A stretch of 64,000 nt of DNA from contig OZ255836.1 in NCBI GenBank assembly GCA_965277715.1, positions 2,752,001-2,816,000 of the forward strand. The letters run 5' to 3'. Origin of the DNA: Gammaproteobacteria bacterium. Lineage in GTDB: Bacteria > Pseudomonadota > Gammaproteobacteria > JBCCGL01. Position numbers and translations under genes: made by a program. The notes beneath the pieces were generated by a model. That model made no database searches, was not told where the DNA came from, and saw only the letters and a program-made list of their open reading frames with translations. Positions 45,896 through 64,000 of the stretch are shown one piece after another; position 1 is the stretch's first letter, and each line of letters opens with the position of its first letter.

Positions 45896-46963
45896 CTAGG
45901 GGACGAGCCGCTGTTCGTCGGCATCGAACAGCAGGCAGTGATCCGGGTTGAGGTGCAACTGCACCGGGCTGCCCGGCTGCAGTGAATGAACCCCCTGAGA
46001 TTGTGAAATCCAGGGGGTGCCGTCAATCGTTGCGTGCACGGTGCTGTCAGAGCCGGTCAGCTCGGTTAACAACACTTCACCGGTAACCGCCACCGACCGC
46101 GCACTGGTGGGGGCAAGGGTCACGTGGTGCGGGCGAATGCCGAGGGTGTACTCGCCATCGGGCAGCGCAGCGGCGGCACCTGTTGTCGGCCATGCCGAGG
46201 TGCTGTTCAGGTGGATGTGCCCCGCACGTTTGCTGATCGTGACGATATTCATCGGCGGGTCTGAGTAAACCCGGGCGGTGCGCGTGGTATCTGGTCGTCG
46301 GTAGACTTCATCGCTGGGGCCAAACTGGGTAACCCGGCCCTCGTGCAGGGTGGCGGTATGCCCACCGAGGAGCAGCGCCTCGGTGGGCTCGGTGGTCGCG
46401 TAGACCAGCGTGGCGCCGGTATTGCGGAACAGTTTTGGCAGCTCCTCGCGCAGCTCCTCGCGCAGTTTGTAATCGAGGTTGGCCAGCGGTTCGTCCAGCA
46501 GTACCAGCCGCGCCTGCTTGACCAGGGCGCGGGCCAGCGCGGTGCGTTGTTGCTGGCCGCCGGACAGTTCACCGGGCATACGCTGGAGCATGGGGGTCAG
46601 TTGCAACAGATCCGCAACCCGCTCGACCGCGTCGCGAATCTCGCCCTGGCTCAGTCTGCGCAGGTGCAGCGGCGAGGCGATATTTTCGTACACAGTAAAA
46701 TTGGGGTAATTGATAAACTGCTGGTAGACCATGGCGATATCGCGCTTTTGCACGGCGACGCCAGTGACATTCTGGCCGTTGAACCACACCTCCCCGCTAC
46801 TGGGTTTTTCCAGCCCGGCCATCAGGCGCATCAGCGAGGTTTTGCCCGCCAACGTGGTGCCCAATAGCACGGTGATACCACCCTCTGGCAGTGTCAGGTC
46901 GGTGGGGTGGATATGCGTTTGCCCGGCGACGTTAAGTGAAATGTTTTTGAGTGTTAATGACAT
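45896..46963 (-). CDS. glpS: Glycerol ABC transporter ATP-binding subunit
   Basis: GTTLAGKT, LSGGQQQR, LLDEPLANLD. Confidence 0.8.
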   Translation of the reverse strand: MSLTLKNISLNVAGQTHIHPTDLTLPEGGITVLLGTTLAGKTSLMRLMAGLEKPSSGEVWFNGQNVTGVAVQKRDIAMVYQQFINYPNFTVYENIASPLHLRRLSQGEIRDAVERVADLLQLTPMLQRMPGELSGGQQQRTALARALVKQARLVLLDEPLANLDYKLREELREELPKLFRNTGATLVYATTEPTEALLLGGHTATLHEGRVTQFGPSDEVYRRPDTTRTARVYSDPPMNIVTISKRAGHIHLNSTSAWPTTGAAAALPDGEYTLGIRPHHVTLAPTSARSVAVTGEVLLTELTGSDSTVHATIDGTPWISQSQGVHSLQPGSPVQLHLNPDHCLLFDADEQRLVP

Positions 46964-46969
46964 GCTGAT

Positions 46970-47827
46970 TCAGGTGTTGCCACCGGTGTTCGGGTTAACA
47001 TTCTGGCTAATATGCCGGTCGACGCCATGGGTCATCAATACCTCAACGCGGTGGCGCTGGCAGTGCGCAAGAAACGCATCGGGGGGGCGTTTGTCGGTAA
47101 CGATATAGTCAATCGCCGAGACGTTGGCGATGCGCATTGGGGCGCTGCGCTTAAATTTTTCTGAGTCTGCGACCAGTATTGTTTTGCGGGCGTTGGCAAT
47201 AATCGCCCTGGCGACCCGCACCTCCTGGCTGTCGAAATCGAGCAGTGTGCCGTCTTCCTCAATCGCCGATACCCCAATGATCGCGTAGTCGAGCTTGAAT
47301 CTGGCGATAAATTCGGCGGTGGAATCCCCCACAATCCCGCCATCGTCATTGCGCACTGTGCCGCCTGCCAGCATAAATTTGAACGTGAGGTTGTGCCGCA
47401 GCACCTGGATAACATTGATGTTGTTGGTAACGATCAACAGGCCGTGGTGTTTGCTCAATTGCCGCGCCGCCGACTCGGTGGTGGTACCAATGTTGATGAA
47501 CAGCGACGAATCATCGGGTATCAAGGTCACCGCCGTGGCGCCGATGGCGGTTTTTTCTGCGGCCATAAAACTGCGCCGCGCCGCGTAACTGATATTGGCG
47601 ACACCATCTTGCACAACGGCACCGCCGTGGGTGCGTTGCAGCAGGCGCCTGTCACACAGGTAATTGAGGTCGCGCCGGATAGTTTGCGGGGTGACCCCCA
47701 GCTTGCCTGATAGCGGCTCCACCTGCACTTCGCCCTGTGCGTATGCCGCGTCAACAATCATTTGCTGGCGGATGCTGAGCTGGGTAATTTGCCGGGTAAT
47801 GTGCTGGTCTACCTGCTTGTCGGTCAT
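46970..47827 (-). CDS. glpR: DeoR-family glycerol-3-phosphate regulon repressor
   Basis: VTPQTIRRDL, R.HGGA, LFINIGTTTE. Confidence 0.9.
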   Translation of the reverse strand: MTDKQVDQHITRQITQLSIRQQMIVDAAYAQGEVQVEPLSGKLGVTPQTIRRDLNYLCDRRLLQRTHGGAVVQDGVANISYAARRSFMAAEKTAIGATAVTLIPDDSSLFINIGTTTESAARQLSKHHGLLIVTNNINVIQVLRHNLTFKFMLAGGTVRNDDGGIVGDSTAEFIARFKLDYAIIGVSAIEEDGTLLDFDSQEVRVARAIIANARKTILVADSEKFKRSAPMRIANVSAIDYIVTDKRPPDAFLAHCQRHRVEVLMTHGVDRHISQNVNPNTGGNT

Positions 47828-47951
47828 GGTGTTGATAAAAGCCTAAACGTATCCGTTGAGTTGGCTACGAACATCTAATGGATTGAATATAAAACATGTT
47901 TACACGGTTTAACCGATTGTCAGGTGAAAGAAAACAGTTGAATCAAGTGGA

Positions 47952-47990
47952 CGCCCTGGGACAGGGTTGCGGCGGGATTGTCCCAGGGCG
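47952..47990. terminator. Intergenic hairpin after the binding-protein gene
   Basis: CGCCCTGGGACA...TGTCCCAGGGCG, 12-bp stem. Confidence 0.55.
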
Positions 47991-47996
47991 GTTGGC

Positions 47997-49748
47997 TTAG
48001 TTAGCTTCCCACTGTTTGATCAGCTCCTCGTAGGCGATTGTTTCGCCTTGTGGCTTTTCATTGGCCAGCTTGGCTTTTGGTGAGCCGGGCTTATTCAGCC
48101 ACACAGACGGATCCTGTGGTTCATTCAGGCGAGGGCCACAACCGCCGTAGACGTTGGCTTTCTCGTCTGCCGCCTGCATCCGCGCCATGGTGATATCCAT
48201 CTCGCCCGCGAGCCGGTCCATCGCCTGCTGAGGCGTGAACGCACCGGAGTTGACGTCACCAATTTGCTGCCACCAAATCTGCGCGAGCTTGGGGTAGTCC
48301 GGCACGTTGACACCCGTTGGCGTCCAGCGCACCCGGTCGGGTGAACGGTAAAACTCGACCAGGCCCCCCAGCTTGGGCGCACGCTCGGTAAAGGAGGCGT
48401 GGCGAATATCGCTGTCGCGGATCGGTGTCAGGCCCACGTGTGTCTTCTTCAGAGAAACTGTCTTGGAGACGACAAACTGCGCGTACAACCAGGCGGCCTT
48501 GCGGCGATCAACCGGGGTCGATTTAAACAATGTCCAGGAGCCAGCGTCCTGATAGCCGAGCTTCTGGCCTTTCTGCCAATAGGGGCCGTGGGGTGACGGC
48601 GCCATGCGCCACAGCGGGTTGCCCTCATCATCGACGGTGTTATTGCCCTCACTTTTGGGTTTCACCATATCGGCGGTAAACGCCGTGTACCAGAAAATCT
48701 GCTGGGCCACATTGCCCTGAGACAGCGCGGGCAGTGATTGGTAAAAGTCATAATCGGCAGCCCCAGGCGGGGCGTATTGGCGCAGCCACTCGTCCCACTT
48801 ACGGATCGCGTACACCGCTGCCGGGCTGTTGGCACCACCGCCACGGCTGACCGAGGCACCCACCGGGTTACACGAACCGGCCTCCATACGGATGCCCCAC
48901 TCATCAACCGGACGGCCATTGGGTAACCCCTTGCTGCCCATACCGGCCATCGACAGCCAGGCATCGGTCATGCGCCAGCCGAGGTCGGGTGCGCGTTTAC
49001 CGTAGTCCATATGACCGTAGATGCGCACCCCATCGATCTCTTTGACATCGTTACTGAAAAACTCGGCAATGTCCTCGTAGGCAGACCAGTTGACCGGCAC
49101 CCCAAGCTCATAACCGTACTTATCCTTGAAACGCTGCTTCAGGTCGGCGCGGTTAAACCAATCGTGGCGAAACCAATACAAATTGGCAAACTGTTGATCC
49201 GGGAGCTGGTACAACTTACCGTCTGGCCCGGTGGTGAATGATTTGCCCATAAAGTCATCCACATCCAGCCCTGGGTTGGTGACATCGGCGCCTTCGCCCG
49301 CCATCCAGTCACTCAGGTTGACCGCCAGTTGCAGGCGCGAGTGGGTGCCGATCAGGTCAGAGTCGTTGACATACGCATCGTACAGATTGCGCCCGGTTTG
49401 CATTTGGGTTTGCACCGCCTGCACCACCTCACCCTCGCCCAGAATCTGGTGATTCACCTCAATCCCGGTAATCTCTTCAAACGCCTTGGTCAACACCTCA
49501 GACTCATAGCTGTGTGTCGGTATACCCTCGGATAACACGTTGATTTCCATGCCGCTAAACGGTTTTGCGGCATCGATAAACCACGCCATCTCCGCCGCCT
49601 GCTCCGCCTTTGAAAGCGTGGAGGGCTGGAATTCATTATTGATCCACTTATCCGCCTCGGTTGTGCCTGCCTCGGTTGTGCCTACCAGAGCACCTGTCGC
49701 CGACAAGGTGCAGGCCACCGCAAAGGCCGCTGCTGTTAATGGTTTCAT
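47997..49748 (-). CDS. glpV: Glycerol ABC transporter substrate-binding protein
   Basis: Signal peptide; LYQLPDQQFANLYWFR, VPVNWSAYEDIA; operon context. Confidence 0.8.
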   Translation of the reverse strand: MKPLTAAAFAVACTLSATGALVGTTEAGTTEADKWINNEFQPSTLSKAEQAAEMAWFIDAAKPFSGMEINVLSEGIPTHSYESEVLTKAFEEITGIEVNHQILGEGEVVQAVQTQMQTGRNLYDAYVNDSDLIGTHSRLQLAVNLSDWMAGEGADVTNPGLDVDDFMGKSFTTGPDGKLYQLPDQQFANLYWFRHDWFNRADLKQRFKDKYGYELGVPVNWSAYEDIAEFFSNDVKEIDGVRIYGHMDYGKRAPDLGWRMTDAWLSMAGMGSKGLPNGRPVDEWGIRMEAGSCNPVGASVSRGGGANSPAAVYAIRKWDEWLRQYAPPGAADYDFYQSLPALSQGNVAQQIFWYTAFTADMVKPKSEGNNTVDDEGNPLWRMAPSPHGPYWQKGQKLGYQDAGSWTLFKSTPVDRRKAAWLYAQFVVSKTVSLKKTHVGLTPIRDSDIRHASFTERAPKLGGLVEFYRSPDRVRWTPTGVNVPDYPKLAQIWWQQIGDVNSGAFTPQQAMDRLAGEMDITMARMQAADEKANVYGGCGPRLNEPQDPSVWLNKPGSPKAKLANEKPQGETIAYEELIKQWEAN

Positions 49749-49908
49749 ATCGCTATAATCCCCTTCGGTTTTTAACATTTAATGGGTTTGCATGTATGGT
49801 TTTGGCTTGTATTCAGAGAAATCTGAACAGACGAGGCTAGCAATAAAAATTTTCACATGCAATCGTTTTATTTTCGTTTGAACATAAGTTATTAATATAT
49901 CGAATATT

Positions 49909-52137
49909 ATGAAAAAAACTGACCCGCCAGCCACTCAACTACACGATATCGCCGCGCTGGCCGCCAACTACGTCAACACCACCGGGCGGCACATCTTCCT
50001 CACCGGCAAAGCGGGCACGGGTAAAACCACATTCCTCAAATACATCAGCGAGCACACCTACAAAAACACCGCCGTGGCCGCCCCCACCGGCATCGCCGCC
50101 ATCAACGCGGGCGGGGTTACCCTGCACTCACTGCTGCAACTGCCCTTTGGTGCATTCATCCCGGACAACATAGCGCCAGGCGCGGCGGATTCACGCATCA
50201 ACACCCCGCAAACGCTGTTTAAAGACCTGCGCTTCAACGCCACCAAACGCGCCCTGATTCAGGCACTGGAACTGCTCATCATCGACGAAGTGAGCATGTT
50301 GCGTGCAGACCTGCTGGACTGCATCGACCACGTATTGCGCTTTTTGCGCCGCCGGGTGGAACCCTTTGGGGGCTTACAAATACTGTTTATCGGTGATCTA
50401 TTACAACTGCCGCCAGTTATCAATGACGCAGAAATGGCCCTGCTGCTGCCCTACTACGACAGCCCCTACTTCTTCGAGGCACACTCTCTGCGTGAAAACC
50501 CACCGATTTTGATCGAGCTGCAAAAAATCTTCCGGCAGCGCGATCAACACTTTATCGACTTGCTCAACCGCCTGCGGCACAACCAGCAGACCCATCAGGA
50601 TATACAAAAGCTAAACAGCTACCATCAGCCCAGTTTTGACCGGGCGGCAGACAGCGGGTACATCCACATCACCACCCATAACCAACGGGCAGACCGCATC
50701 AACCACAGCCGCCTGCAAAGCCTGCCTGCCCCTGCCTACCACTACCCGGCACAGATCCAGGGCAACTTTCCGGAAAACCTGTTTCCGGTCAGCGAAACGC
50801 TCGAACTGAAAGCGGGCGCCCAGGTGATGTTTATCAAAAATGACCCCAGCGGTGAAGGGCAGTTTTTTAACGGCAAAATTGGCATCGTCGAACACCTTGA
50901 TAATGAGGGCATCCGCGTGGCCTGCGGGGAGGATGACGTTATCCAGGTGGATACCCACCTATGGGAAAACAAACAATACGTACTCAACAAAACCAACAAC
51001 GATGTCGAGGAAAAAAACCTGGGCAGCTTTGAACAGTACCCGCTAAAACTGGCCTGGGCCATCACCGTACACAAAAGCCAGGGCCTGACATTTGAAAAAG
51101 CCATTTTGGATCTTTCCGGCACATTTGCGGCGGGGCAATTGTATGTTGCCCTATCCCGCCTGACCTCGCTGGCGGGTCTGGTATTGTCATCCCCGCTACC
51201 GGAAAACCCACCGCGCATCGACCCCTCACTGCAAACCTTTGCCGATGGCTTTCAGGATACAGCCGTATTGCAACAAAACCTGGACCATGAACGGCGTGAT
51301 GCCCTGCGCCAGCTTGCCCGCCGCGCCTTCCAGTTTGATGGCCTGTTAACCGCATTAAACGCGCACCAGCAAAGCTTTAACAAAGACGAAAACCGCTCGC
51401 TTAAACAACAGCATTTACCCTGGACACAAGCATTGATCGATGACGTGTTACCGTTGAAAACGATAGGCGAAAAATTTATCCGACAAGTAGACAAAATACT
51501 CGAACAGGAACACTACCTGGCGTTACTCGCCGAACGGCTGGCGCGTGCACAGGATTACTTCGACAAGGCCTTCGTTGATTTCTTAGCGCGCTTGCGCACG
51601 CACATACAAACCGTGAAACGTGAGAGCAAAGTAAAAACCTACCTAAAAGAACTCGATGCCCTGCGAGGTTTATTTTTTGATCAGAATAAATTTATACTAA
51701 AAATCGCCGTCTTAGCCCGCTGTACTGTGGAAAATAAAATACCGGAAAAAAAGGATTTTCAGGATTCAGCGCTATACCAATCGGCTGAAAAAAAACGCAC
51801 TAAAAAAACAGATAAAAAAGACAAAACACCGACAAAGACCATTTCTTACGACCTGTTTCGCGAGGGAAAAAGCGTTGCAGAAATTGCCCAAATACGCGGG
51901 CTGGTCGCCAGCACCATCGAGGGGCACCTGGCAGCTTATGTCGCAACCGGCGAGCTGGATGTATTGACACTGCTGAGCGAGGATAAGCTGGCGAAAATAG
52001 CCGCAGAATATCAAGGTAAAGAGAAAAGCTTCGGGCAGATTAAAGCGATATTAGGGGATGAAATCAGCTATGGTGAAATCCGATTAGCCGTGGTGCACTT
52101 GCAGCGGGAGAACCCAGGCGAGGCTTTGGTGGATTAG
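49909..52137 (+). CDS. Pif1/RecD-like SF1 helicase with C-terminal HTH
   Basis: GKAGTGKT, IIDEVSM, GDLLQLPPV, AWAITVHKSQG, YVALSR. Confidence 0.85.
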   Translation: MKKTDPPATQLHDIAALAANYVNTTGRHIFLTGKAGTGKTTFLKYISEHTYKNTAVAAPTGIAAINAGGVTLHSLLQLPFGAFIPDNIAPGAADSRINTPQTLFKDLRFNATKRALIQALELLIIDEVSMLRADLLDCIDHVLRFLRRRVEPFGGLQILFIGDLLQLPPVINDAEMALLLPYYDSPYFFEAHSLRENPPILIELQKIFRQRDQHFIDLLNRLRHNQQTHQDIQKLNSYHQPSFDRAADSGYIHITTHNQRADRINHSRLQSLPAPAYHYPAQIQGNFPENLFPVSETLELKAGAQVMFIKNDPSGEGQFFNGKIGIVEHLDNEGIRVACGEDDVIQVDTHLWENKQYVLNKTNNDVEEKNLGSFEQYPLKLAWAITVHKSQGLTFEKAILDLSGTFAAGQLYVALSRLTSLAGLVLSSPLPENPPRIDPSLQTFADGFQDTAVLQQNLDHERRDALRQLARRAFQFDGLLTALNAHQQSFNKDENRSLKQQHLPWTQALIDDVLPLKTIGEKFIRQVDKILEQEHYLALLAERLARAQDYFDKAFVDFLARLRTHIQTVKRESKVKTYLKELDALRGLFFDQNKFILKIAVLARCTVENKIPEKKDFQDSALYQSAEKKRTKKTDKKDKTPTKTISYDLFREGKSVAEIAQIRGLVASTIEGHLAAYVATGELDVLTLLSEDKLAKIAAEYQGKEKSFGQIKAILGDEISYGEIRLAVVHLQRENPGEALVD

Positions 52138-52151
52138 TGTGAGTATCCATC

Positions 52152-52480
52152 TCTACGCAACTATGTAACCCTCTAAATGCCTTTAGAAAATTAACGATGG
52201 CCTCTGGATCCATTTTCGATTGAGGGAATTTATGCTTAAGAATTAAAAAAAAATTAATTAAAATTGGTTGCCCCTGAAATTTTCTGCTACTCTAACTATA
52301 GTTAGAAAACAATAATACTAAATATCAAAGGCCTCTGTATTGTTTTTAGTATCAAAATGAGAAAAGTATAGCGATATGAATCAGCCACTTACAAAAATAT
52401 CTCAATACTTGGGAAGAATTAAGAGGCCACCTCATAATAATGTTACAGAGGTCTTTGGCCTTTGTAACATACTGTTAGCT
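52152..52480 (+). repeat. Promoter/attI-like block, copy 1
   Basis: ~325 bp non-coding; ends TAAC-ATACT-GTTAGCT; repeated at 60400 and 62509. Confidence 0.7.
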
Positions 52481-52501
52481 TCTCCGGAGAAATAGAGAAT
52501 T

Positions 52502-53257
52502 ATGTGGGGGTTTTCTGGATCAGTTGAATACGTATGCGATGGCTGTGGAGCTAGTGGTGAGGTTCCCATAGTAGATTTCTCTGTAGAGTGTGTGGGTGGC
52601 GGTGATCGCCAAATGGGGCCAGAAAACTTATATGATGTAATTTATGAGTTCGAGTGTGCCGACTGTGGTGTAGATATCTCGCTTAACTTTCAAGTATCTG
52701 AGTATCCAACAGAAGTACTAAATTTCATACTAAACAACTCAACTGGGGCACAAACTGAGGGTGAACCGGGATTTGAGTATGTTAGAGAAATTTACAGTGC
52801 GAGAGATTTATTTTATCTACATGAATCAATTTCAGAACTGATCACGGCTTTGAAAGAAGATGATCAGCTTCTTAGTGCAATAACATCTCGTCAGTTCGAG
52901 GAAATTGTTGCTGAAGTCTTTAAGTCTAAAGGTTATGAAGTAGAATTAACTAAAAAGACAAGAGATGGCGGCAAGGATATTATTGCTATCCACACTGACT
53001 CATTAGACATAAGAAATAAGTACTTTATTGAGTGCAAATATTACGCGGAAAGTAACAAAATTAGTGTTGATGTAGTGCGCGCACTATATGGGGTTAAGAA
53101 TACGATGGATGGCCCTAATAAAGCAATCGTAGTGACGACTTCGACTTTCACTAGTGATGCGAGAAAGTTTGTAGAAAATGAGGCATCTAGCAGTTGGGAT
53201 TTATCTCTGGTAGATAGAGAGCAGCTACTTCAGTGGTTAAATGAGTACAAAAGCTAA
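52502..53257 (+). CDS. Mrr-cat-like restriction endonuclease with N-terminal Zn-ribbon (cassette 1)
   Basis: CxxC..CxxC; FEEIVAE, DGGKD, IECK, VTTSTFT. Confidence 0.8.
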   Translation: MWGFSGSVEYVCDGCGASGEVPIVDFSVECVGGGDRQMGPENLYDVIYEFECADCGVDISLNFQVSEYPTEVLNFILNNSTGAQTEGEPGFEYVREIYSARDLFYLHESISELITALKEDDQLLSAITSRQFEEIVAEVFKSKGYEVELTKKTRDGGKDIIAIHTDSLDIRNKYFIECKYYAESNKISVDVVRALYGVKNTMDGPNKAIVVTTSTFTSDARKFVENEASSSWDLSLVDREQLLQWLNEYKS

Positions 53258-53323
53258 CAAAGCGCTGCTGTCGGACAAATTCTCCGCTGCACTCCAAATT
53301 TGCCGTAGAGCGCGGCGTTATGC
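53252..53323 (+). other. Integron attC site
   Basis: AGCTAAC...GTTATGC, 72 bp, imperfect palindrome; AGCTAAC is complementary to the cassette start GTTAGCT. Confidence 0.85.
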
Positions 53324-53374
53324 AAGACGACTGACCTTCATCAGATGTAACAATGTAGCTACGCTGGAAACTAA

Positions 53375-55993
53375 ATGGCCCTTCTGAACGACATACTGAA
53401 TTGGACTGAATCTCTTACAACATGGCAAAGGGATGCATGTCGTCGCCTGTTCCAGAAAGAAGCTGAACTAGACGAAGCCGATTACTCTGAACTCTACAGT
53501 ATCCTCAAGACTGAGAACGGGATACAGATTGATGATGCCCCTGTTTCAGTCCCACTGACCGGTGATCATCTTCCTGCCGAGGTAGTCTCCGGTGACACTC
53601 TTACTCTTGTCGCTTTACGGGACTTGAAAAACGTTAATCAGATCCCGAGTGATCGCGCCCTAAATTTCTCAGAAGCAGGGATGACGGTTATCTATGGGGG
53701 GAATGGATCTGGCAAGTCAGGCTATGCACGCGTTATGAAGAGAGCCTGCCGGGCTAGAGATCAATCGGAGCCGATCCATCCCAATGCACACGATCCCACT
53801 GCAGCCGCGAAAGAACCGACGGCGAAGTTTGAAATACTAATTTCTGGCACCTCAGAAGAGGTTGCATGGTCACGCAACTCAACTCCGCCGGAACGCCTCT
53901 CCTCAATTTCCGTCTTCGATTCAAAGTGCGCTCGCTCATATGTCACAGCGGAGCAGGATGTCGCCTATCTCCCCTACGGTCTTGATATTGTTGAAAACCT
54001 CGCAAATCAAGTTCTCCCGAAACTTTCGGAGATGCTTGAATCAGAGGTCGGGGGAATAGATGTCAGCAAACTTCCTTTCGAGCACCTCCTTGGCGAAACT
54101 GAAGTAGGCAAAGTAGCTGAAGATCTTTCCGTCAAATCAGACACTGACGCAATTACTTTGCTCGGAACTTTCAGTGCAGAGGACGCACAGCGGCTAGCGG
54201 AGCTCGAAGCAGCTCTCAAGGAAGGTAATCCTCTGGCTAAAGCTGAAGAGGCTCGACTTTCAGGCATGCGTTTGAAGGCTTACTCAGAGAAACTAACTAA
54301 ACCTCTAAACTGGGTCAGTCCAGAAGCAGCTGAAAAACTTCAGAAACTCGACGAAGAAAAGACTATCGCAGAGGAAGCCGAGAAGAAAGCAGCAGATGCC
54401 TTACGCGCTGGGGAGGAGTTGCTACCTGGAACTGGAGACCAAGAATGGAAGCTGCTCTTTGAAGCAGCCAGACGCTACTCAACCGAAGCTGCGTATCCGG
54501 GAGAGGAGTTTCCATCTCCTGCCGAGGGAAAGGACTGCCCATTATGCCAAGAAGAGTTGCCTGAAAGTGGGTCTAAACGCCTCAAAAGATTTAACGAGTA
54601 TATCCAGAATGATGTCGCGACAACTGCCGACGCGGCACGTAAAAAGGTCGAAACAGCAAGGAGCAAGATTGAAACGGCAGAGCTTCAAATCACTCCAGAT
54701 AAAGCTCTAGGCGATGAACTCAAATCGTTAGATGACTCAGTTCTTCAATCAATCAGTGATTTCCAAACTTCCATCGATTTACGGCGGGATTCGATGCTTG
54801 AGTGCCTCGGAACATCTAAATGGGTTGAGATCCCTGTTTTGATTGACTCCCCAAGGAGCCTAGTTAGGCAGCTTGCCGCGCAGCAACTGCAGGTATTTCG
54901 CACACTGGTCAAAGCGGCGGACGAAGATAAGCGGATAAAGCTCGAGAAAGAACACCGCGAACTTTTGGCGAGGCAAAATCTATCCAAGTGCTTAAAGGCC
55001 GTCCTTGAATTGCTTGATCGCATGAAGACAAAGGCGGCACTTGAAAAGTGCAGGCCCTGTCTCAAAACTCGTCCGATTTCTGACAAGTCGAAGGAGTTTT
55101 CCACTGTCGCTGTAACTGATGAGCTCAGGAAAGCCCTCGACAAAGAGTTCAATGTGCTAGGCATCGGTCACATCAAGACGAAGCTGAAGGAAAAAAGCGT
55201 CCGAGGCAAGATGCTTCACCAACTATTGCTCGACCTGCCAATTGCAAACAAGATCGAAGAAATTTTGAGCGAAGGTGAGCAGCGTGCTATTGCACTGGGT
55301 TCATTTTTTGCCGAATTAGCCCTCGCTAATCACTCGTGCGGAATTGTCTTCGATGATCCTGTATCGTCTTTAGATCATTGGCGTCGCCTTAATGTGGCAC
55401 GCAGGTTGGTGGAGGAAGCGAAGAGTCGGCAAGTCATCGTGTTCACTCATGACACTTCGTTTCTTGGCCAATTATGCGACGAAATCGAAGCTGAGGGCAT
55501 TCCGAGTTCAAAATCGTTTTTGGAATGGCGTGGCGGCTTACCAGGTAGCGTAAACGATGGTCTTCCTTGGGATCACCAAAGCTACAAAGCACGAATCAAC
55601 TCTCTCGAACAAGCGCAGAACAAGTTAGCTAAGGCTTGGCCAGCGTATCCGGGTGAGGCCGAGATTAGCGCAATAAGACATGAGTACGACCGTTTACGAG
55701 CTACGCTCGAACGGGTCATTCAGGATGTTGTTTTTAATGGTGTTGTAAAGCGGTATCGAGACTGGATACGAGTTGACTCTCTTGAAGATGTTGTAGGCTT
55801 TGATCGGCCTGAGTATGAAGCGATCGAGAAGCTACACAAGCGAAGCTGTGATGTAGTAACTGCACACGATCCTGCGTCAGCGAAGGCCGCAGCTGTTCCA
55901 ACGGCGACAGATCTCGGAAATGATATATCTGCTTTGAAGACTATTGTTAAAACTATTAAAAACCGTAGAAAGGCCGCAAAGGCAGCGTCTTAG
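53375..55993 (+). CDS. Rad50/SMC-like ABC ATPase with Zn-hook (RloC/AAA_13-like; cassette 2)
   Basis: GGNGSGKS, coiled coil with CPLC, LSEGE, FDDPVSSLD, FTHD. Confidence 0.75.
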   Translation: MALLNDILNWTESLTTWQRDACRRLFQKEAELDEADYSELYSILKTENGIQIDDAPVSVPLTGDHLPAEVVSGDTLTLVALRDLKNVNQIPSDRALNFSEAGMTVIYGGNGSGKSGYARVMKRACRARDQSEPIHPNAHDPTAAAKEPTAKFEILISGTSEEVAWSRNSTPPERLSSISVFDSKCARSYVTAEQDVAYLPYGLDIVENLANQVLPKLSEMLESEVGGIDVSKLPFEHLLGETEVGKVAEDLSVKSDTDAITLLGTFSAEDAQRLAELEAALKEGNPLAKAEEARLSGMRLKAYSEKLTKPLNWVSPEAAEKLQKLDEEKTIAEEAEKKAADALRAGEELLPGTGDQEWKLLFEAARRYSTEAAYPGEEFPSPAEGKDCPLCQEELPESGSKRLKRFNEYIQNDVATTADAARKKVETARSKIETAELQITPDKALGDELKSLDDSVLQSISDFQTSIDLRRDSMLECLGTSKWVEIPVLIDSPRSLVRQLAAQQLQVFRTLVKAADEDKRIKLEKEHRELLARQNLSKCLKAVLELLDRMKTKAALEKCRPCLKTRPISDKSKEFSTVAVTDELRKALDKEFNVLGIGHIKTKLKEKSVRGKMLHQLLLDLPIANKIEEILSEGEQRAIALGSFFAELALANHSCGIVFDDPVSSLDHWRRLNVARRLVEEAKSRQVIVFTHDTSFLGQLCDEIEAEGIPSSKSFLEWRGGLPGSVNDGLPWDHQSYKARINSLEQAQNKLAKAWPAYPGEAEISAIRHEYDRLRATLERVIQDVVFNGVVKRYRDWIRVDSLEDVVGFDRPEYEAIEKLHKRSCDVVTAHDPASAKAAAVPTATDLGNDISALKTIVKTIKNRRKAAKAAS

Positions 55994-56002
55994 CAAAGCA
56001 AT

Positions 56003-56074
56003 GCATAACAAGGCGCTGCTGTCGGACAAATTTTCCGCTGCGCTCCAAATTTGCCGCAGAGCGCGGCGTTAGAT
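56003..56074 (+). other. Integron attC site
   Basis: GCATAAC...GTTAGAT, near-identical to the first attC; GCATAAC is complementary to GTTATGC. Confidence 0.85.
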
Positions 56075-56231
56075 GCCAAATGGAGTTCTGATTTGAGACC
56101 TGTATATTTTCTTTTTTTACTATCTATTTCTGGTGTTTTGTGGGCACAACAAATGAAAAGGGGTCAATCCTATTTAAAATGAAAAGGGGTCAATCCTATT
56201 TAATATTTTCAAAATAGTATAAATTTAAACG

Positions 56232-57083
56232 ATGCCTAAACCTACTCGAATACAATACGAAAATGCCTACTACCACGTTATGAATCGTGGCAAAGCCAGA
56301 CAGACCATCTTTCATGGCGAAATTTACTACCAGGCATTTCTACAAACGCTCGATGAAGCACATAAACGCTTTGATGCCTACATCCACGCTTACTGTTTGA
56401 TGGGTAATCATTATCATCTATTGATCGAAACCCCTCGTGCTAATCTGGATCGCATCATGCGGCATATCAATGGTATCTACACACAACGCTACAACCGGCT
56501 TAGACGCACGGATGGGCCTCTTTTTCGCGGTCGTTATAAAGCGATTATTGTGGATGCAGACGACTACTTATTACCCTTAAGCCGTTACATTCATCGTAAC
56601 CCAATAGAAGTAAAGGGTGTAACAGCAGATAAGCTCGATAGCTATTCCTGGTCGAGTTACCACGCTTACATCAACCAAGCCAAAGCACCGGAATGGTTGT
56701 ATCGAGAGGCAACCTATAGTGCACTCGGCGCTAAACAACGTTACGTTGCTTATAAGACATATGTTGGTCAAGGTATTGATGAGGGCATTAGCCGTTTTTA
56801 TAACAAAGGCAATGTGACGACGATACTGGGTGACAAATCCTTCAAGACGTATATTGCCGAAAACCGGGAGTCGATGCACATATCGGGGGACTTGTCCCGT
56901 ATTGTGACGGACAAGCCAAACGGTGCAGCTATAGTCGATGCAGTGGCAGCGGTGTTTGGCGTTAACGCGAGTGATGTACTTACGCGACAGCGGGGGAGAC
57001 AACGGGCGAATCTGCCTCGTAAAGTAGCGATATATTGTTGTCAGCAATTGGGAGATATGCCGTTAAAAACGCTGGTTGAGTAG
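56232..57083 (+). pseudogene. Y1 HUH transposase family B copy 1, 3'-truncated by a small deletion (element 56186..57192)
   Basis: NHYHLL, RYIHRNP; GGGGTCA/TGACCCC ends; 26-bp tandem duplication 56151-56202. Confidence 0.85.
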
Positions 57084-57390
57084 CCTTTCTCCTGCAATTG
57101 ATTATGTAAAGAGTGGGCTGTCAACGGCGGCGTGAAGGGCGTGTTTGAGCAGGTTTGCAACCGTTTGAAAAATATTAAATACGATTGACCCCTTTTTTTT
57201 CGCTCACTCAAATGGGCGAGTTTTTAATCCCAGTGGAAGTTGATCAAAGTTTCAAAAGTTAACAGGACAGCAGTGAATTACAAAATAAAAAATTCAGAAA
57301 ATAAAATATCTGGCCAATCTTTGGCGGTGTATTTTTATAATACTTTTTAAGAACTTTTTGTGTTTAACTTTTTACCTTGGAGGATAAAAA

Positions 57391-58851
57391 TTGATTAATA
57401 TAGATAATGATACAAAAGAGCCTCATTTTGGGCGTCTTCTGCTGCCAAGCAATATTGCAGACAAAGAGTTAGATCTCTCTGTATATGTTCATCGACAAGA
57501 GTGCCATGAAAAGATAGTTCAGCAAATAATCAGCTCTTACAAACAAAGAACCACAGGTGCGATTGCAATATGTGGCTCTCCAGGATCCGGAAAGTCAACG
57601 ATAGTAAGGTTTTTATATGATTATCTATCTAGCCAAAAAGAATTCACCCCGACCATTACCAGCATAGACTTTGAAGACGATGTTGGCTTCCCTCAAGGTT
57701 TGCACCCCAAACCCTTGCTTGCTGATCACTTTGCAAGTTTCTTTTCTAGGTTAGAAAGAGAGTTAGTTGCGGCAGGATCAACTCTTAACCCATTGAGAGA
57801 AAAAATTAGACCTCTGCAAAAAAGATATAAAAAATTTTTCGAGAATATAAAAGAAGAATATCCTAATAACAATCAACTAGAAATAGCTTTTGATGCTGTT
57901 CGAGATGCAATTTTCCCTAGAATAGCCACTATCGACAAAGAGTTGGTAATTTTCTGTGATAATTTAGATTTTCTTACAGCCTCTGATCAAATATTTTTTA
58001 TTGGTATGCTAGGAATGATGACAGAGACAAATAATAAAATAAAGTGCGTTTTTACTTCCAGGCCACTAACAACAGCTAGAATTAGAAAGACGTTCCACGA
58101 TTATTTAAATAAAAAGCTACTAAGCGACAATTGTTTGGAAGATATAAGCGTAGGTGATTTTTTGGGAAAAAGATTTTCCGTGTCTGACTATATATTGAAG
58201 GATGTATTTAGCATAGAGAATTTGGAAATTATCAGAAAACTATCTGCCGGAAATAACCAAGATATATTGAACAATGTAGGATCACTTTTTAATTACTATA
58301 AAAAAAACCCGGATTTATTTCCTCTAAATAATCAAGATATGATGAGGTATCTTATTTTGGTGGAAAATGCTGTATCTAACCCAATACAGCATATAAATCA
58401 AGATGATGAAGTTCCATTAAAGTGGGTGATCATGTCCTTTCTGGTAGGAAAAATACCTATTGATTTATCTTTTTATGAACGCTTGAAACTTTTTATCGAT
58501 TCAATGACTGGAAAAATCGCAAGGAGAGTAGATAGGCAGAGGGTTGAATCAATTATATTTGAAATGATAAAAGGAGATTACTTTATTCGCCGGATTGACT
58601 TTATTAATCAAGAAATAGATGGGAGAAATCTAGCCAACCACCCGGAGCGTGTTGATGGCTCGATATGTTGCCTTACCGAGCGTGGTTTACTTATGTTTCA
58701 GAGCACAAAATTAATAACAGAAGTTTACCCTAACTTCTCATCCTATAGAAACTCGGTTAGAAAGTTTATTGGGAAATACGATACCAGCTCACATAAATTT
58801 TTCAGTGAAAATAACATGCTTGGCGAAAGCTGGATGGTTTATAAAAAATGA
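57391..58851 (+). CDS. P-loop ATPase, uncharacterised
   Basis: GSPGSGKS Walker A, VIFCDNLD Walker B, FTSR; AT-rich; TTG start with GGAGG RBS. Confidence 0.7.
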   Translation: MINIDNDTKEPHFGRLLLPSNIADKELDLSVYVHRQECHEKIVQQIISSYKQRTTGAIAICGSPGSGKSTIVRFLYDYLSSQKEFTPTITSIDFEDDVGFPQGLHPKPLLADHFASFFSRLERELVAAGSTLNPLREKIRPLQKRYKKFFENIKEEYPNNNQLEIAFDAVRDAIFPRIATIDKELVIFCDNLDFLTASDQIFFIGMLGMMTETNNKIKCVFTSRPLTTARIRKTFHDYLNKKLLSDNCLEDISVGDFLGKRFSVSDYILKDVFSIENLEIIRKLSAGNNQDILNNVGSLFNYYKKNPDLFPLNNQDMMRYLILVENAVSNPIQHINQDDEVPLKWVIMSFLVGKIPIDLSFYERLKLFIDSMTGKIARRVDRQRVESIIFEMIKGDYFIRRIDFINQEIDGRNLANHPERVDGSICCLTERGLLMFQSTKLITEVYPNFSSYRNSVRKFIGKYDTSSHKFFSENNMLGESWMVYKK

Positions 58852-59324
58852 ATTGGCATAATATCAATTATATTTCGGGGTCAAAATTTTTTATTTTTGC
58901 CAGCGTCGCTCATACTTTATTTGTTTTCGCTCTTAATATTGGAATATCCGAAGACATTTTAAACATAAGCACAAAACTAGCCGTAGTTGTAAATATGATC
59001 GTATTTATATATGTTCAATCTTCTTATGTAATATGCCCGGGGCCCCTAAAAGGAATTAAAAGTCTAAAACAGTTTTACGATGCTCATGTTTTTGAATTAG
59101 AAACAGAGTTAATGAAGATTGAATATATAAACCATCATTCAATTAAAGATGTTACAGAAGCCAGTGAAAAAGAAGATATATTGTTTTTTCATTTTAAAAA
59201 AGCTGATGACTCTCTTTCTCGTGTTAGATATTTTCTTACAACTATTTTAATTACAGCTCTAATATTCTATATTGCGATATCATTTATAGGCTTTTTTACC
59301 GTCATTAATGGAATATATTCGTGA
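58848..59324 (+). CDS. Small multi-TM membrane protein
   Basis: About three hydrophobic helices; ATGA overlap with the ATPase. Confidence 0.6.
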   Translation: MNWHNINYISGSKFFIFASVAHTLFVFALNIGISEDILNISTKLAVVVNMIVFIYVQSSYVICPGPLKGIKSLKQFYDAHVFELETELMKIEYINHHSIKDVTEASEKEDILFFHFKKADDSLSRVRYFLTTILITALIFYIAISFIGFFTVINGIYS

Positions 59325-59407
59325 CTGTCACCTAATTTTGTAATTATTTCATGAGTCAAAAGGGGTCAATCTTATTTAATATTTTCAAAATAGTATAAAT
59401 TTAAACG

Positions 59408-60388
59408 ATGCCTAGACCTACTCGAATACAATACGAAAATGCCTACTACCACGTTATGAATCGTGGCAAAGCCAGACAAACCATCTTTCATGGCGAAATT
59501 TACTACCAGGCATTTCTACAAACGCTCGATGAAGCACATAAACGCTTTGATGCCTGCATCCACGCTTACTGTTTGATGAGTAATCATTATCATCTATTGA
59601 TCGAAACCCCTCGTGCTAATCTGGATCGCATCATGCGGCATATCAATGGTATCTACACACAACGCTACAACCGGCTTAGACGCACGGATGGGCCTCTTTT
59701 TCGCGGTCGTTATAAAGCGATTATTGTGGATGCAGACGACTACTTATTACCCTTAAGCCGTTACATTCATCGTAACCCAATAGAAGTAAAAGGTGTAACA
59801 GTGGATAAGCTCGATAGCTATTCCTGGTCGAATTACCACGCTTACATCAACCAAGCCAAAGCACCAGAATGGTTGCATCGAGAGGCAACCTATAGTGCAC
59901 TCGGCGCTAAACAACGTTACGTTGCTTATAAGACATATGTTGGTCGAGGTATTGATGAGGACATTAGCCGTTTTTATAACAAAGGCAATGTGGCGACGAT
60001 ACTGGGTGACAAATCCTTCAAGACGTATATTGCCGAAAACCGGGAGTCGATGCACATATCGGGGGACTTATCCCGTATTGTGACGGACAAGCCAAACGGT
60101 GCAGCTATAGTCGATGCAGTGGCAGCGGTGTTTGGCGTTAACGCGAGTGATGTACTTACGCGACAGCGGGGTAAACAACGGGCGAATCTGCCTCGTAAAG
60201 TAGCGATATATTGTTGTCAGCAATTGGGGGATATGCTGTTAAAAACGCTGGTTGATATGTTTGAATATAGTCGTGTTAGTAGCCTTTCTCCTGCAATTGA
60301 TTATGTAAGGAGTGGGCTATCAGACGGCAGCTTGAAGGGCGTGTTTGAGCAGGTTTGCAACCGTTTGAAAAATATTAAATACGATTGA
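59408..60388 (+). CDS. Y1 HUH transposase family B copy 2, intact (element 59362..60392)
   Basis: HUH and Tyr motifs; the stop TGA lies inside terminal TGACCCC. Confidence 0.85.
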   Translation: MPRPTRIQYENAYYHVMNRGKARQTIFHGEIYYQAFLQTLDEAHKRFDACIHAYCLMSNHYHLLIETPRANLDRIMRHINGIYTQRYNRLRRTDGPLFRGRYKAIIVDADDYLLPLSRYIHRNPIEVKGVTVDKLDSYSWSNYHAYINQAKAPEWLHREATYSALGAKQRYVAYKTYVGRGIDEDISRFYNKGNVATILGDKSFKTYIAENRESMHISGDLSRIVTDKPNGAAIVDAVAAVFGVNASDVLTRQRGKQRANLPRKVAIYCCQQLGDMLLKTLVDMFEYSRVSSLSPAIDYVRSGLSDGSLKGVFEQVCNRLKNIKYD

Positions 60389-60399
60389 CCCCTTTTTTT

Positions 60400-60726
60400 T
60401 CTACGCAACTATGTAACCCTCTAAATGCCTTTAGAAAGTTAACGATGGCTTCTGGATCCATTTTCGGTTGAGGGAATCTATGCTTAAGAATTAAAAAAAT
60501 TAATTAAAATTGGCTGCCCCTAAAATTTTCTGCTACTCTAACTGTAGCTAGAAAACAATAATACTAAATATCAAAGGCCTCTGTATTGTTTTTAGTATCA
60601 AAATGAGAAAAATATAGCGATATGAATCAGCCACTTACAAAAATTTCTCAATACTTGGGAAGAATTAAGAGGCCACCTCATAATAATGTTACAGAGGTCT
60701 TTGGCCTTTGTAACATACTGTTAGAT
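60400..60726 (+). repeat. Promoter/attI-like block, copy 2
   Basis: Near-identical to 52152-52478; ends TAACATACTGTTAGAT. Confidence 0.7.
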
Positions 60727-60744
60727 TCATCATAGAAGTTTTGA

Positions 60745-61659
60745 GTGAAAAATAACAATCTCTATATAATCGGTAATGGATTCGATATCTATCATGGGAT
60801 TCCCTCACGTTATTCGGATTTCAAGGAGTATTTGAAATCAAGTAATCAAACCCTGCATGATCACGTCATCGAGTATCTTCCTGTAGAAGAAAACTGGTGT
60901 GATCTTGAGGTCGCTTTTGCGCACCTAGATGTTGATAATGTAATTGATGAAGCAATGCAGTATCTTCAAACATATTCTGCTGAGAATTGGAGTGATTCGT
61001 TTCATCATGACTATCAATTTGAGCTTGATAAGATAGTTTCGGATCTTTCTAGCGGCCTAAAGTCATATTTTTGTGAATGGATAACTCACCTTGAATTACC
61101 GTCACCCAATAGCCTTCCATGTGAGCCACTTCGAATAAATAGGAAAGGATGTTTTTTAACCTTTAATTACACAAGAACACTTCAATGTGTCTACGGTGTG
61201 GGCAATGATAATGTCATACATATACATGGTGAGTCCGAACAAGGTGAGTCTGAAATAGTATTAGGGCACTCCTGGAATCCAGAAGAAATCTCTGATCTAA
61301 ATGATGTTCCAAATCCAGAGGATATGGACACAAGGGTTATGGAAGGGAATGAAATAGTAAATGACTATCTTGGAAAAACCTTTAAGCCATCAAAGAAAAT
61401 AATCGAAGATAATGCGTTTTTCTTTTCTAATCTCTCCAGCGTTAATAAAGTATATGTTCTAGGTCACTCCATGTCAGAGGTTGACCTCCCTTACTTTGAA
61501 GAGATAAGAGGGAATGTTAACGAAAACGCTGAATGGATCGTGACTTACTACGGAGAAGAAGAGCTTGATCGTCACAAAGAAACGATCCGAAGCCTAGGAA
61601 TAGAGAATGTCAGATTTTGTGACTTTTCAGATATTACAAAAGGGGGCAATCCTATTTAA
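60745..61659 (+). CDS. AbiH-family abortive-infection protein
   Basis: LYIIGNGFD..H, LTFNYT, HIHG, GHSMSEVD.PYF; last codons come from the Y1 element end. Confidence 0.8.
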   Translation: MKNNNLYIIGNGFDIYHGIPSRYSDFKEYLKSSNQTLHDHVIEYLPVEENWCDLEVAFAHLDVDNVIDEAMQYLQTYSAENWSDSFHHDYQFELDKIVSDLSSGLKSYFCEWITHLELPSPNSLPCEPLRINRKGCFLTFNYTRTLQCVYGVGNDNVIHIHGESEQGESEIVLGHSWNPEEISDLNDVPNPEDMDTRVMEGNEIVNDYLGKTFKPSKKIIEDNAFFFSNLSSVNKVYVLGHSMSEVDLPYFEEIRGNVNENAEWIVTYYGEEELDRHKETIRSLGIENVRFCDFSDITKGGNPI

Positions 61660-61687
61660 TATTTTCAAAATAGTATAAATTTAAACG

Positions 61688-62332
61688 ATGCCTAGACCTA
61701 CTCGAATACAATACGAAAATGCCTACTACCACGTTATGAATCGTGGCAAAGCCAGACAGACCATCTTTCATGGCGAAATTTACTACCAGGCATTTCTACA
61801 AACGCTCGATGAAGCACATAAACGCTTTGATGCCTGCATCCACGCTTACTGTTTGATGGGTAATCATTATCATCTATTGATCGAAACCCCTCGTGCTAAT
61901 CTGGATCGCATCATGCGGCATATCAATGGTATCTACACACAACGCTACAACCGGCTTAGACGCACAGATGGGCCTCTTTTTCGCGGTCGTTATAAAGCGA
62001 TTATTGTGGATACAGACGACTACTTATTACCCTTAAGCCGTTACATTCATCGTAACCCAATAGTGGCAGCGGTGTTTGGCGTTAACGCGAGTGATGTACT
62101 TACGCGACAGCGGGGGAGGCAACGGGCGAATCTGCCTCGTAAAGTAGCGATATATTGTTGTCAGCAATTGGGAGATATGCCGTTAAAAACGCTGGTTGAT
62201 ATGTTTGTATATAGTCGTGTTAGTAGCCTTTCTCCTGCAATTGATTATGTAAAGAGTGGGCTGTCAGACGGCAGCTTGAAGGGCGTGTTTGAGCAGGTTT
62301 GCAACCGTTTGAAAAATATTAAATACGATTGA
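61688..62332 (+). pseudogene. Y1 HUH transposase family B copy 3, in-frame deletion of 112 aa (element 61642..62336)
   Basis: RNPI joined directly to VAAVFG; left end variant GGGGGCA. Confidence 0.85.
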
Positions 62333-62419
62333 CCCCTTTTTGTTCTTTTTGTTTTCATCGTCTTCTTTCAGCAAACGCAAGGTCTTTATGTCCTCGATAT
62401 TCTGATCATGGTTTGCCAA

Positions 62420-62508
62420 CGCCTGCCGAAATCGTGCCACGGATAACCCCGTGTAACGCTACAGCATAGTCACCAGCAATAGCGTAGTCGATACCATCGC
62501 TTTCAAGG
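62420..62508 (-). pseudogene. Fragment resembling a nucleotidyltransferase N-terminus
   Basis: Manual translation LESDGIDYAIAGDYAVALHGVIRGT. Confidence 0.4.
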
Positions 62509-62750
62509 TTAAGAATTAAAAAAATTAATTAAAATTGGCTGCCCCTGAAATTTTCTGCTACTCTAACTGTAGCTAAAAAACAATAATACTAAATATCAAA
62601 GGCTTCTGTATTGTTTTTAGTATCAAAATGAGAAAAATATAGCGATATGAATCAGCCACTTACAAAAATTTCTCAATACTGGGAAGAATTAAGAGGTCAC
62701 CTCATAATAATGTTACAGAGGTCTTTGGCCTTTGTAACATACTGTTATAT
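62509..62750 (+). repeat. Promoter/attI-like block, copy 3 (5'-truncated)
   Basis: Ends TAACATACTGTTATAT. Confidence 0.7.
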
Positions 62751-62800
62751 GGCATCTGAAACGACTGTACAATCTCCCAAAAATAACGATTGAGGCGAAT

Positions 62801-64000
62801 ATGGAATTCTGGTTATTAATAGGAGGCGCAGTAATTTTTTACTACGTCATCAAAGCAATGAAAACGCCTTCAAAGCAGCAAGTTCAGAAGAATAATAGAG
62901 CAATTTCCGAAAACGAAATCCGTGTAACCATGATTACGAGCAATCGGGTTGTAGCAAACAGTAATCATGATGATGATTTGGCTACCTTCGATATTTTATA
63001 TGGCTATGAGGAGGAAAAAAGCAAAAATAAAACGCCAGGGAAATGGATAAAATCCGGTGAAGCCATCACCATAAAGGGACAAAAATTTACTGGCGGTAAT
63101 TTTTATTTTGGTGGCAAGCTCAGTTCATTAGACGGATATGGAACTGAAGCGTCACTGGTTGACGATTCATTAAAGATTGAAAACAAACCGTCTAGTTTTG
63201 AAGATGATAGTTTAGGCTATTGGCCTAAATTTATCTCACTCTCACCTAAAGGGCGTGGTGCTTTCCTTAGCTGGCTATCTGGTAACAGAAGTGACTCAGA
63301 AACACCTTTGGGTTATGTGTTTATTTATTTCTATGGTATCGAAAGACGTATTACCGTTGATTCGATACATCAGACAGTAGATGACGCGGAATTTAAATCT
63401 TTGTTTGACGAAATACTACGATTAAAAGACATTTACGGCAGCAGTCGTTCTTTTTCAAATTATTCCACACGACTACTAGAATTTATGTGCTTGCTACGCC
63501 CTCAAGTAGTATCACATCCGGAGTTGGAAAAATTTCCTCAACGGGATTCTCTGTTATTTAAACATCGACTTGCCACTACAATCAGCGAGGAAAAGCCAGT
63601 TCCTGCTGAACTGGCATTGGCATGGATTCGATTTTATCCAGATTATAATCTGAAGAAACCAGCACGGCGTTGTAGCTATGAATTCAGCCAGATGTTTACA
63701 CGCCTCTATAGCAAAAAATATGGGGAAGGCATTGCTGTCAAGCCTAATAAAACACGGTTAAAGATAGAGTATCATCCTGCCAGCTCTTCTTTGCGCGGTA
63801 TATCGTTTCCTCAAAAGGATCTTCCTGATCCTAGTAATTTGAAAGGCCCTACAAATAAATTGATTGCCATCGCCGATGAATGTACAGCTGAGTTAGATGC
63901 TTATAGTCGATATCTTGCTAAATCCGATACGTCCCGCACGGATATTGAAGCCGTATTGCTATTACCAGATGAACTCAGTGACTTAGGATCTACGTTAGGG
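62801..64000 (+). CDS. TerB N-terminal-domain protein, runs off the window
   Basis: N-terminal TM; EASLVD, LGYWP...LSP..R..FL.WL, GYVFIYFYGIERR; absent from the ORF track because it has no stop in the window. Confidence 0.75.
   Translation, partial: MEFWLLIGGAVIFYYVIKAMKTPSKQQVQKNNRAISENEIRVTMITSNRVVANSNHDDDLATFDILYGYEEEKSKNKTPGKWIKSGEAITIKGQKFTGGNFYFGGKLSSLDGYGTEASLVDDSLKIENKPSSFEDDSLGYWPKFISLSPKGRGAFLSWLSGNRSDSETPLGYVFIYFYGIERRITVDSIHQTVDDAEFKSLFDEILRLKDIYGSSRSFSNYSTRLLEFMCLLRPQVVSHPELEKFPQRDSLLFKHRLATTISEEKPVPAELALAWIRFYPDYNLKKPARRCSYEFSQMFTRLYSKKYGEGIAVKPNKTRLKIEYHPASSSLRGISFPQKDLPDPSNLKGPTNKLIAIADECTAELDAYSRYLAKSDTSRTDIEAVLLLPDELSDLGSTLG

Follow-up and report, generated by a model that had tools for sequence, protein, structure and literature searches.

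Introduction

The textbook integron has a single attI site, adjacent to a single integrase gene, and good expression is confined to the first cassettes of its array. Clusters of attC sites lacking integron-integrases (CALINs), arrays scrambled by insertion sequences (IS) and cassettes encoding defence genes are already known. Here we describe a locus within 64,000 nt of a gammaproteobacterial genome (GenBank assembly GCA_965277715.1, contig OZ255836.1, positions 2,752,001 to 2,816,000, forward strand; this whole stretch is called the window, and positions are numbered from its first letter). A non-coding block that appears to end in an attI-type site is present there in three copies, each heading a different defence-type gene and none adjoined by an integrase gene. 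Probably, a chromosomal integron of the marine type lost its integrase gene here, and the block is its attI region, now present in at least three copies.

In the passages of PMC8946536 that concern the site, attI is recognized as double-stranded DNA by its sequence and co-evolves with the integrase, and recombination between two attI sites also occurs; the legend to Figure 2 of that paper gives attI1 with L and R inverted repeats. A multi-copy attI without integrase, in which each copy heads a unit of its own, is not described in the full-text literature searched, supplements excepted.

Results

Three copies of a non-coding block end at the same base

Repeat finding and alignment give three copies of the block in the window, at the starts listed in an earlier note on this DNA (52152, 60400 and 62509; Table 1). 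That note described a near-identical block of ~325 bp; this holds for copies 1 and 2 (~323 nt) but not for copy 3, which is 236 nt long. Pairwise identity is 95–98%, with 314/326 aligned columns for copies 1 and 2, 230/241 for copies 1 and 3 and 234/239 for copies 2 and 3. All three copies end TAACATACTG/TTA at the same base (the slash marks the crossover point), and the sequences are unrelated beyond it. Only 19–28 matches are found between copies in the 59–60 columns following GTTA, in keeping with the divergence reported earlier. The motif TAACANACTGTTA occurs three times in the window, each time at a block end, where 0.02 occurrences are expected, and none of 100 shuffled sequences reached three.

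The start at 52152 does not mark a boundary of the block itself. Copies 1 and 2 share this left edge because a Y1 element interrupts copy 2 at that point; copy 1 continues leftwards into the 3′ flank of a helicase gene. The inverted boxes around the crossover (the L and R boxes) can be read directly from the sequence as TGTAAC-ATACT-GTTAGC. The core of copy 1 and its hairpin lie at ~52412–52477, with the crossover between G52474 and T52475, and this 13-bp hairpin is the sole strong fold of the block end (z = −3.5). No open reading frame (ORF) of ≥50 aa lies wholly inside any copy, and an unannotated 58-aa reverse ORF (62264–62440) stops 69 nt before copy 3. The gene behind each copy is different, as the earlier note had observed, being an Mrr_cat nuclease, AbiH and a TerB_N protein matching SngA for copies 1, 2 and 3 respectively.

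The block end resembles the attI of a complete integron

A 20-nt word from the attC family found behind copy 1 (see below), a family common in marine samples, matches at least 119 contigs drawn from many marine metagenomes; it has no match in viral contigs. For comparison 118 loci were fetched. One of these, the metagenome contig L101, is a complete integron whose integron integrase scores 432 bits with TIGR02249 (cut-off 265). Its intI gene is transcribed away from the cassettes. The attI, 197 nt from the start of intI, follows a short hairpin and reads TAACAGACTG/TTAGCT (...TGAGGTCGAAGACCTCATTAACAGACTG/TTAGCT). AGCTAAC stands at the end of the first cassette, and the cassettes carry the same attC family as the window.

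This attI can be aligned with the final 63 nt of the block; 41 of 63 positions are identical, and both sequences stop at the crossover. The local alignment score is 19, compared with 10.2 ± 1.5 for shuffled sequences, none of 1000 of which reached that value. Block and L101 have in common the core TAACAnACTGTTAG, the string TAACAnACTG/TTAG and an inverted repeat immediately ahead of the left box; among 198 loci compared, the core motif was found in L101 only. Because the homology is anchored at the crossover end, and because an integrase gene stands beside the L101 site, the block end is, judged by its sequence, an attI-type site homologous to a genuine attI. The identification proposed in the earlier note thus finds support in a homologous site that adjoins an intact integrase gene and has the same crossover. 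That note had also named two findings that would speak against it, namely homologues that never adjoin cassettes or intI, and a block that is the end of an IS or intron; the L101 homologue adjoins intI, and the block has no intron or IS signature.

A second and more distant integron, L156, has a partial IntI (43% identical) and reads ...TAATCACTG/TTAGATG ~198 nt from the intI start, with a first cassette whose attC starts CATCTAAC. The likeness of the block to L156 is weaker than to L101. The first cassette of L156 (2870–3200, reverse strand) appears, when the start of its translation is inspected by eye, to encode a small membrane protein of the small-multidrug-resistance type.

The 21-nt word at the block end has no match in genome, metagenome or viral contigs, blastn of the block against plasmids gave no match, and blastn of 52000–64000 against all fetched loci returned attC matches only. 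A search of viral contigs for integrases of the L101 type gave only four distant recombinases (27–31% identity). Three IntI genes at ~50% identity were found in three further genomes, all in one of them, and 401 sampled genomes from a single class gave one IntI match at 47%; the regions upstream of these further genes lack a comparable core, bar one chance-like match. The best plasmid integron integrases are 54% identical, and the one plasmid region inspected is disrupted and uninformative.

Copy 1 is followed by two mobile cassettes

Behind copy 1 are two cassettes, each with an attC at its end. The attCs are 66-nt imperfect palindromes (53255–53320 and 56006–56071) that fold as bulged hairpins. 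A covariance model of the family was built from 45 members, whose mean column identity of 84%, flanks included, shows the family to be very uniform. The model scores 88.6 bits for the attC of cassette 1 and 103 bits for that of cassette 2, the next best score in the window being 12.4 bits. At the junction, the heptamer GTTAGCT (52474–52480) is matched in reverse complement by AGCTAAC at 53252, where the attC of cassette 1 starts, which bears out the complementarity seen by the earlier note. Cassette 2 obeys the same rule, with GTTATGC against GCATAAC at 56003. Such complementarity between a junction heptamer and the start of the unit's own attC is as predicted for a circular cassette.

The boundaries are also visible in other DNA. 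Run X1, from a marine metagenome, has a contig that is ~90% identical to the Mrr cassette between 52474, exactly the G of G/TT, and 53281, and that bears a second attC further on. The PDC-S06 cassette is ~97% identical in three other studies (X2, 53309–56071; X22, 53317–56020; and X1, in pieces), where both ends of the matches fall inside the attCs or no more than ~50 nt away and the sequences on either side are unlike. Cassettes 1 and 2 are therefore true mobile cassettes with the predicted boundaries, and both circulate among marine bacteria.

The window contains no integrase gene

The position of intI in a complete integron is filled at copy 1 by a gene for a PIF1-type helicase, the stop codon of which lies 14 nt before the copy. 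The best relatives of the helicase (57% identical) are in Bacteroidota metagenome-assembled genomes and are of no use as synteny anchors. The earlier note had seen no adjacent integrase, and this applies to the entire window: none of the 47 ORFs scanned has a tyrosine recombinase domain, tblastn with the L101 IntI gave a best E of 0.23, and no copy of the block is adjoined by intI as it would be in a complete integron. A 20-codon reverse ORF on the left side of the block was considered as a possible relic of intI and rejected, as it has no significant likeness to IntI. With two attCs and no integrase gene or remnant in 64 kb, the locus is a CALIN by the usual definition, and one in which the attI has been kept and multiplied to three.

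Units behind the second attC and behind copies 2 and 3

The three defence-type genes start 21–56 nt behind the crossovers, in the same orientation as the blocks. The abiH frame runs into the left end of Y1 element 3, the sequence of which supplies the stop codon, and the natural 3′ end has been lost. With AbiH cut by this element and the SngA unit cut by the end of the window, the attC complement is seen for copy 1 alone. An attC starting ATATAAC, which the earlier note proposed to look for after the TerB_N locus, is not present anywhere in 52000–64000, and the unit runs off the window. The corresponding attC start for copy 2, ATCTAAC, is found once, inside the STAND gene, probably by chance.

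Both genes have relatives in other contigs. A 28%-identical AbiH (L099, 1932–2786) starts ~24 nt after an attC of the family found in the window, and from this arrangement AbiH genes appear to travel as cassettes in integrons with that attC family. The SngA unit is matched over 62779–63489 by a contig of run X1, with 101 differing letters.

Table 1. Features of the attI block region and their positions in the window
Feature	Position	Strand	Details
PIF1-type helicase with C-terminal HTH_40	49909–52137	+	Pfam PIF1 2e-25, HTH_40 1.2e-22
Block copy 1, putative orphan attI region	52152–52474	+	~323 nt; crossover between G52474 and T52475
Cassette 1: Mrr-like nuclease gene 52502–53257 and attC 53252–53323	52475–53317	+	Pfam Mrr_cat 2.9e-27; PADLOC PDC-S02 and type IV restriction-like models
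Cassette 2: 872-aa AAA_13 ATPase gene 53375–55993 and attC 56003–56074	53318–56068	+	PADLOC candidate defence family PDC-S06, 629 bits, full length
Third unit, behind the second attC	56069–59357	+	Y1 element 1, STAND-type NTPase 57391–58851, 158-aa ORF 58848–59324
Y1 element 1	56182–57199	+	23-bp deletion
Y1 element 2	59358–60399	+	Intact, 326-aa Y1_Tnp protein; right end abuts copy 2
Block copy 2, putative orphan attI	60400–60720	+	~323 nt; crossover between G60720 and T60721
AbiH unit, gene 60745–61659	60721–61637	+	Pfam AbiH 1.6e-70; PADLOC AbiH
Y1 element 3	61638–62343	+	336-bp internal deletion
Unrelated gene fragment broken by stop codons	62344–62508	−	Between Y1 element 3 and copy 3; no Pfam match
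Block copy 3, putative orphan attI	62509–62744	+	236 nt, without the left ~85 nt; crossover between G62744 and T62745
TerB_N protein matching SngA (Shango), 62801 onwards, running off the window	62745–64000	+	Pfam TerB_N 1.2e-46; PADLOC SngA 7.4e-45

The Y1 elements and the origin of the additional copies

The Y1 element is ~1 kb in length and encodes a protein with a Y1_Tnp domain (Pfam 1e-15) and a helix-turn-helix of the DnaA_C type. The ends of IS200/IS605 elements or of REP-associated tyrosine transposase (RAYT) elements characteristically have subterminal hairpins and no long terminal inverted repeats. The element described here does not have ends of this kind; it possesses terminal inverted repeats of ~27 bp starting AAAAGGGGTCAATC, which is unusual for Y1 transposases. 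With the NCBIfam model for REP-associated tyrosine transposases the protein scores 58 bits, short of the cut-off of 80.

Copy 2 begins at the base right after the right end of Y1 element 2, which reads GATTGACCCC and then continues as a T-run, just as the earlier note had stated. Copy 3 begins ~165 bp past Y1 element 3, behind the broken gene fragment. The same note had further proposed that Y1 elements duplicate the attI, coupling two recombination systems. What is seen is adjacency alone, at 0 bp and ~165 bp, and ordinary recombination between repeats explains this equally well. The flanks of Y1 element 2 are not contiguous DNA, as would be left by recombination between two copies of the element. 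Words of the Y1 element reach a depth of 5119 in sequencing run X21 (see below) against 108 for the helicase, and with an element this abundant repeat-mediated rearrangement is an easy route to extra copies of attI. In the part of Cury et al. that deals with their origin (PMC4889954), IS-mediated rearrangement is proposed as a source of CALINs, 38% of which have a neighbouring IS. Most likely, a Y1 (RAYT-like) element inserted beside the attI, and recombination between element copies would then have generated the extra attI copies; the Y1 enzyme itself need not have acted on the attI.

The left end of Y1 element 1 is tandemly doubled at 56145–56206, with a 25-nt unit ATGAAAAGGGGTCAATCCTATTTAA. 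A second family with Y1_Tnp and DnaA_C domains (322 aa) is present elsewhere in the window as two 99%-identical copies (20177–21145 and 36909–37877), with ends of the type TAGCCTGACCCCTTTT and tandem repeats at 21164–21302 and 37896–37967. Several DDE and IS110-type transposase genes are located around it.

Read depth and the population

Run X21 is a second sample that bears the same organism label. Word depths of contigs are a poor measure, and holes in the cover prove nothing. The helicase shares a contig with the left-hand portion of block 1, and the depth there is 108, compared with 17.9 for the Mrr cassette, ~10–12 for AbiH, 27.9 for SngA and 0–2.5 for the PDC-S06 cassette. One contig of this run, with a depth of 26.6, spans 62313–62634 and so bridges the end of Y1 element 3, the gene fragment and block 3. 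Because of this contig block 3 can be placed behind Y1 element 3 and not behind the helicase, and its depth is close to that of SngA, so at least two distinct genomic places hold the block. Another X21 contig follows a block end as far as 62749 and then passes into other sequence, providing a fourth context. The unequal depths together with this fourth context may reflect polymorphism of the cassettes in the population.

Candidate promoter and RNA structure

The best candidate for a promoter in the block is TTGGGA-18-CATAAT, at 52409–52438, the TAATAAT of which also occurs in the L101 attI. Such a promoter may drive transcription of the cassettes, which have none of their own. Rfam has no match in the window at the gathering score, and none in 52100–52520 at E ≤ 1. 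With no Rfam match and no ORF of ≥50 aa wholly within the block, a group II intron or an IS end targeting attC was rejected as a candidate. The RNA fold of 52237–52500 has z = −3.1, and near-identical copies yield no real covariation. In copy 3, the sole substitutions in the stretches matching 52329–52336 and 52421–52428 are one C to T change in each, and the predicted long helix is kept through G-U pairing. Such G-U-preserving changes are weak evidence for an RNA helix, as there is too little variation to test the structure.

Other features of the window

The G+C content is 0.56–0.60 in the transporter genes (42000–50000) and ~0.52 in the helicase gene, compared with 0.35–0.49 in the cassette region (52000–64000). 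Five tandem 387-bp repeats, 84–95% identical, lie at 23737–25584 inside a reverse-strand ORF encoding a 1613-aa cadherin-like protein.

Discussion

We think it probable that the block is the attI region of a chromosomal integron that has outlived its integrase gene. The integrase would recognize a double-stranded site comprising the left box TGTAAC, a 5-nt spacer and the right box GTTA, and would recombine it between G and TT with the folded attC of a circular cassette. With recombination at that point each copy of the block would be the first position of a cassette array, and a different cassette could have been inserted at each through attI x attC recombination. The integrase may be encoded elsewhere in the genome, or it may have been present only in the past or until recently. 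Since attI x attI recombination also occurs, directly repeated copies of the attI would be substrates for deletion as well.

Several observations weigh against this interpretation. The ~260 nt upstream of the attI part resemble neither the spacer between intI and attI in L101 nor anything searched, and the comparison includes one close (L101) and one distant (L156) comparator among the 118 loci taken from at least 119 matching contigs. The attC model finds no attC in the window for the AbiH, STAND and SngA units, which makes them candidate cassettes only. The junction between Y1 element 2 and block 2 is almost uncovered in X21 (word depth 0.96) and is seen in the assembly only. Finally, promoter-like sites number 4 against 1.6 ± 1.3 in shuffled sequences; they are no commoner than in shuffled sequence, and the promoter announced in the title of the earlier note has such consensus matches as its basis.

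The assembly could have strung together alternative forms of a single locus. In that case there would be one helicase–attI locus with a first cassette that varies between cells, the alternatives being joined through the Y1 elements and the blocks, both of which break short-read graphs. The uneven depths in X21 and the fourth sequence found behind a block end would be expected from this, although a hole in the cover proves nothing with contig depths that are so poor a measure. The copies, however, differ mutually at 4–10 positions, the left junctions of copies 2 and 3 are not the helicase flank, and the bridging contig, at a depth near that of SngA, speaks against a pure artefact; we regard the explanation as unlikely. 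It is very unlikely that the block is instead a repeated cassette without an ORF and with an unusual attC at its 3′ end, its copies being members of a scrambled array. Repeated cassettes do occur in large chromosomal arrays, the block end TAAC-N5-GTTA resembles the right half of an attC, and copy 3 starts at G/TTAAG. Yet the terminal GTT has no AAC box on the left with which it could pair, the hairpin described above is the only strong fold, and the attC model matches no block, its best score outside the two attCs lying elsewhere in the window. Moreover, copy 1 is preceded by the helicase gene and not by an attC, and the L101 homologue adjoins intI in the position of an attI.

The remaining alternatives grant the block a different history. 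An ordinary promoter region with a GTT might have been hit by cassettes and later duplicated without ever having been part of an integron platform. According to 10.1101/2022.09.11.507474, integrases insert cassettes at many genomic GWT sites (attG), those near promoters being expressed, and the lack of an intI remnant beside any copy fits such a capture. The 63-nt end-anchored homology to a genuine attI, which includes the hairpin and the TAACAnACTGTTAG core, does not fit it, and three or four independent insertions at one base are better accounted for by a preferred, recognized site; capture of this kind seems to us very improbable indeed. Hardly any weight can be given to mobilization of the attI with the element by the Y1 transposase, through read-through or one-ended transposition, with the two systems mechanistically coupled. 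Copy 2 does directly adjoin the right end of one Y1 element and copy 3 lies ~165 bp beyond that of another, and Y1 element 2, block 2, AbiH and Y1 element 3 form a unit bracketed by direct copies of the element. Copy 1, however, has no Y1 neighbour, copy 3 has an unrelated gene fragment between it and its element and begins at another point of the block, and the non-contiguous flanks of Y1 element 2 are those expected after recombination between elements rather than after transposition.

Under the preferred interpretation, that of an attI region kept after loss of the integrase gene, a docking site can outlive its integrase and multiply, giving the cell several expressed entry points for cassettes. 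This bears on where CALINs come from, and on whether they are functionally linked to an integrase elsewhere, both questions raised in the portion of PMC4889954 that discusses their origin. The ~65-nt attI, with a close relative beside an intact integrase, offers a concrete site that can be tested. A more speculative extension, which we hold to be possible but doubtful, is a distributed integron in this sponge-associated bacterium, in which orphan attI–promoter modules, scattered over the chromosome on Y1-bracketed units and offering many first positions, are loaded with defence cassettes, and have them exchanged, by one integrase encoded elsewhere. If this were so, a cell would express several defence genes simultaneously and the population would turn them over; the unequal depths in X21 (108 for the helicase against 10–28 for the cassettes) would, like the fourth context, be left by such turnover.

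The closest described system is the complete integron, represented by L101. Like its attI, the block stands at the head of a cassette array with a G/TT crossover and the same core behind a short hairpin, and the attC of the first cassette starts with the complement of the junction heptamer. The window differs in having three attI-type copies in place of one and no intI beside any of them, and in the upstream ~260 nt of the block, which are unrelated to the intI–attI spacer of L101. The locus shares with CALINs, as characterized by Cury et al. (2016; PMC4889954), two attCs, the absence of intI from 64 kb and repeated elements of insertion type both within the array and next to it. CALINs are defined there by attCs alone, whereas the window retains a multiplied attI, two of the three copies of which head units that have no attC in the window. 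Its units encode an Mrr-like nuclease, PDC-S06, AbiH and SngA of Shango, and in this they resemble the defence cassettes of 10.1101/2024.07.02.601686, which lie in arrays of complete sedentary integrons and not at first positions without an integrase. With attG sites the locus has in common that cassettes are found away from an integron platform and are expressed if a promoter is near. As described in 10.1101/2022.09.11.507474, however, attG sites are very unlike attI in both sequence and structure, whereas the block end appears homologous to a real attI.

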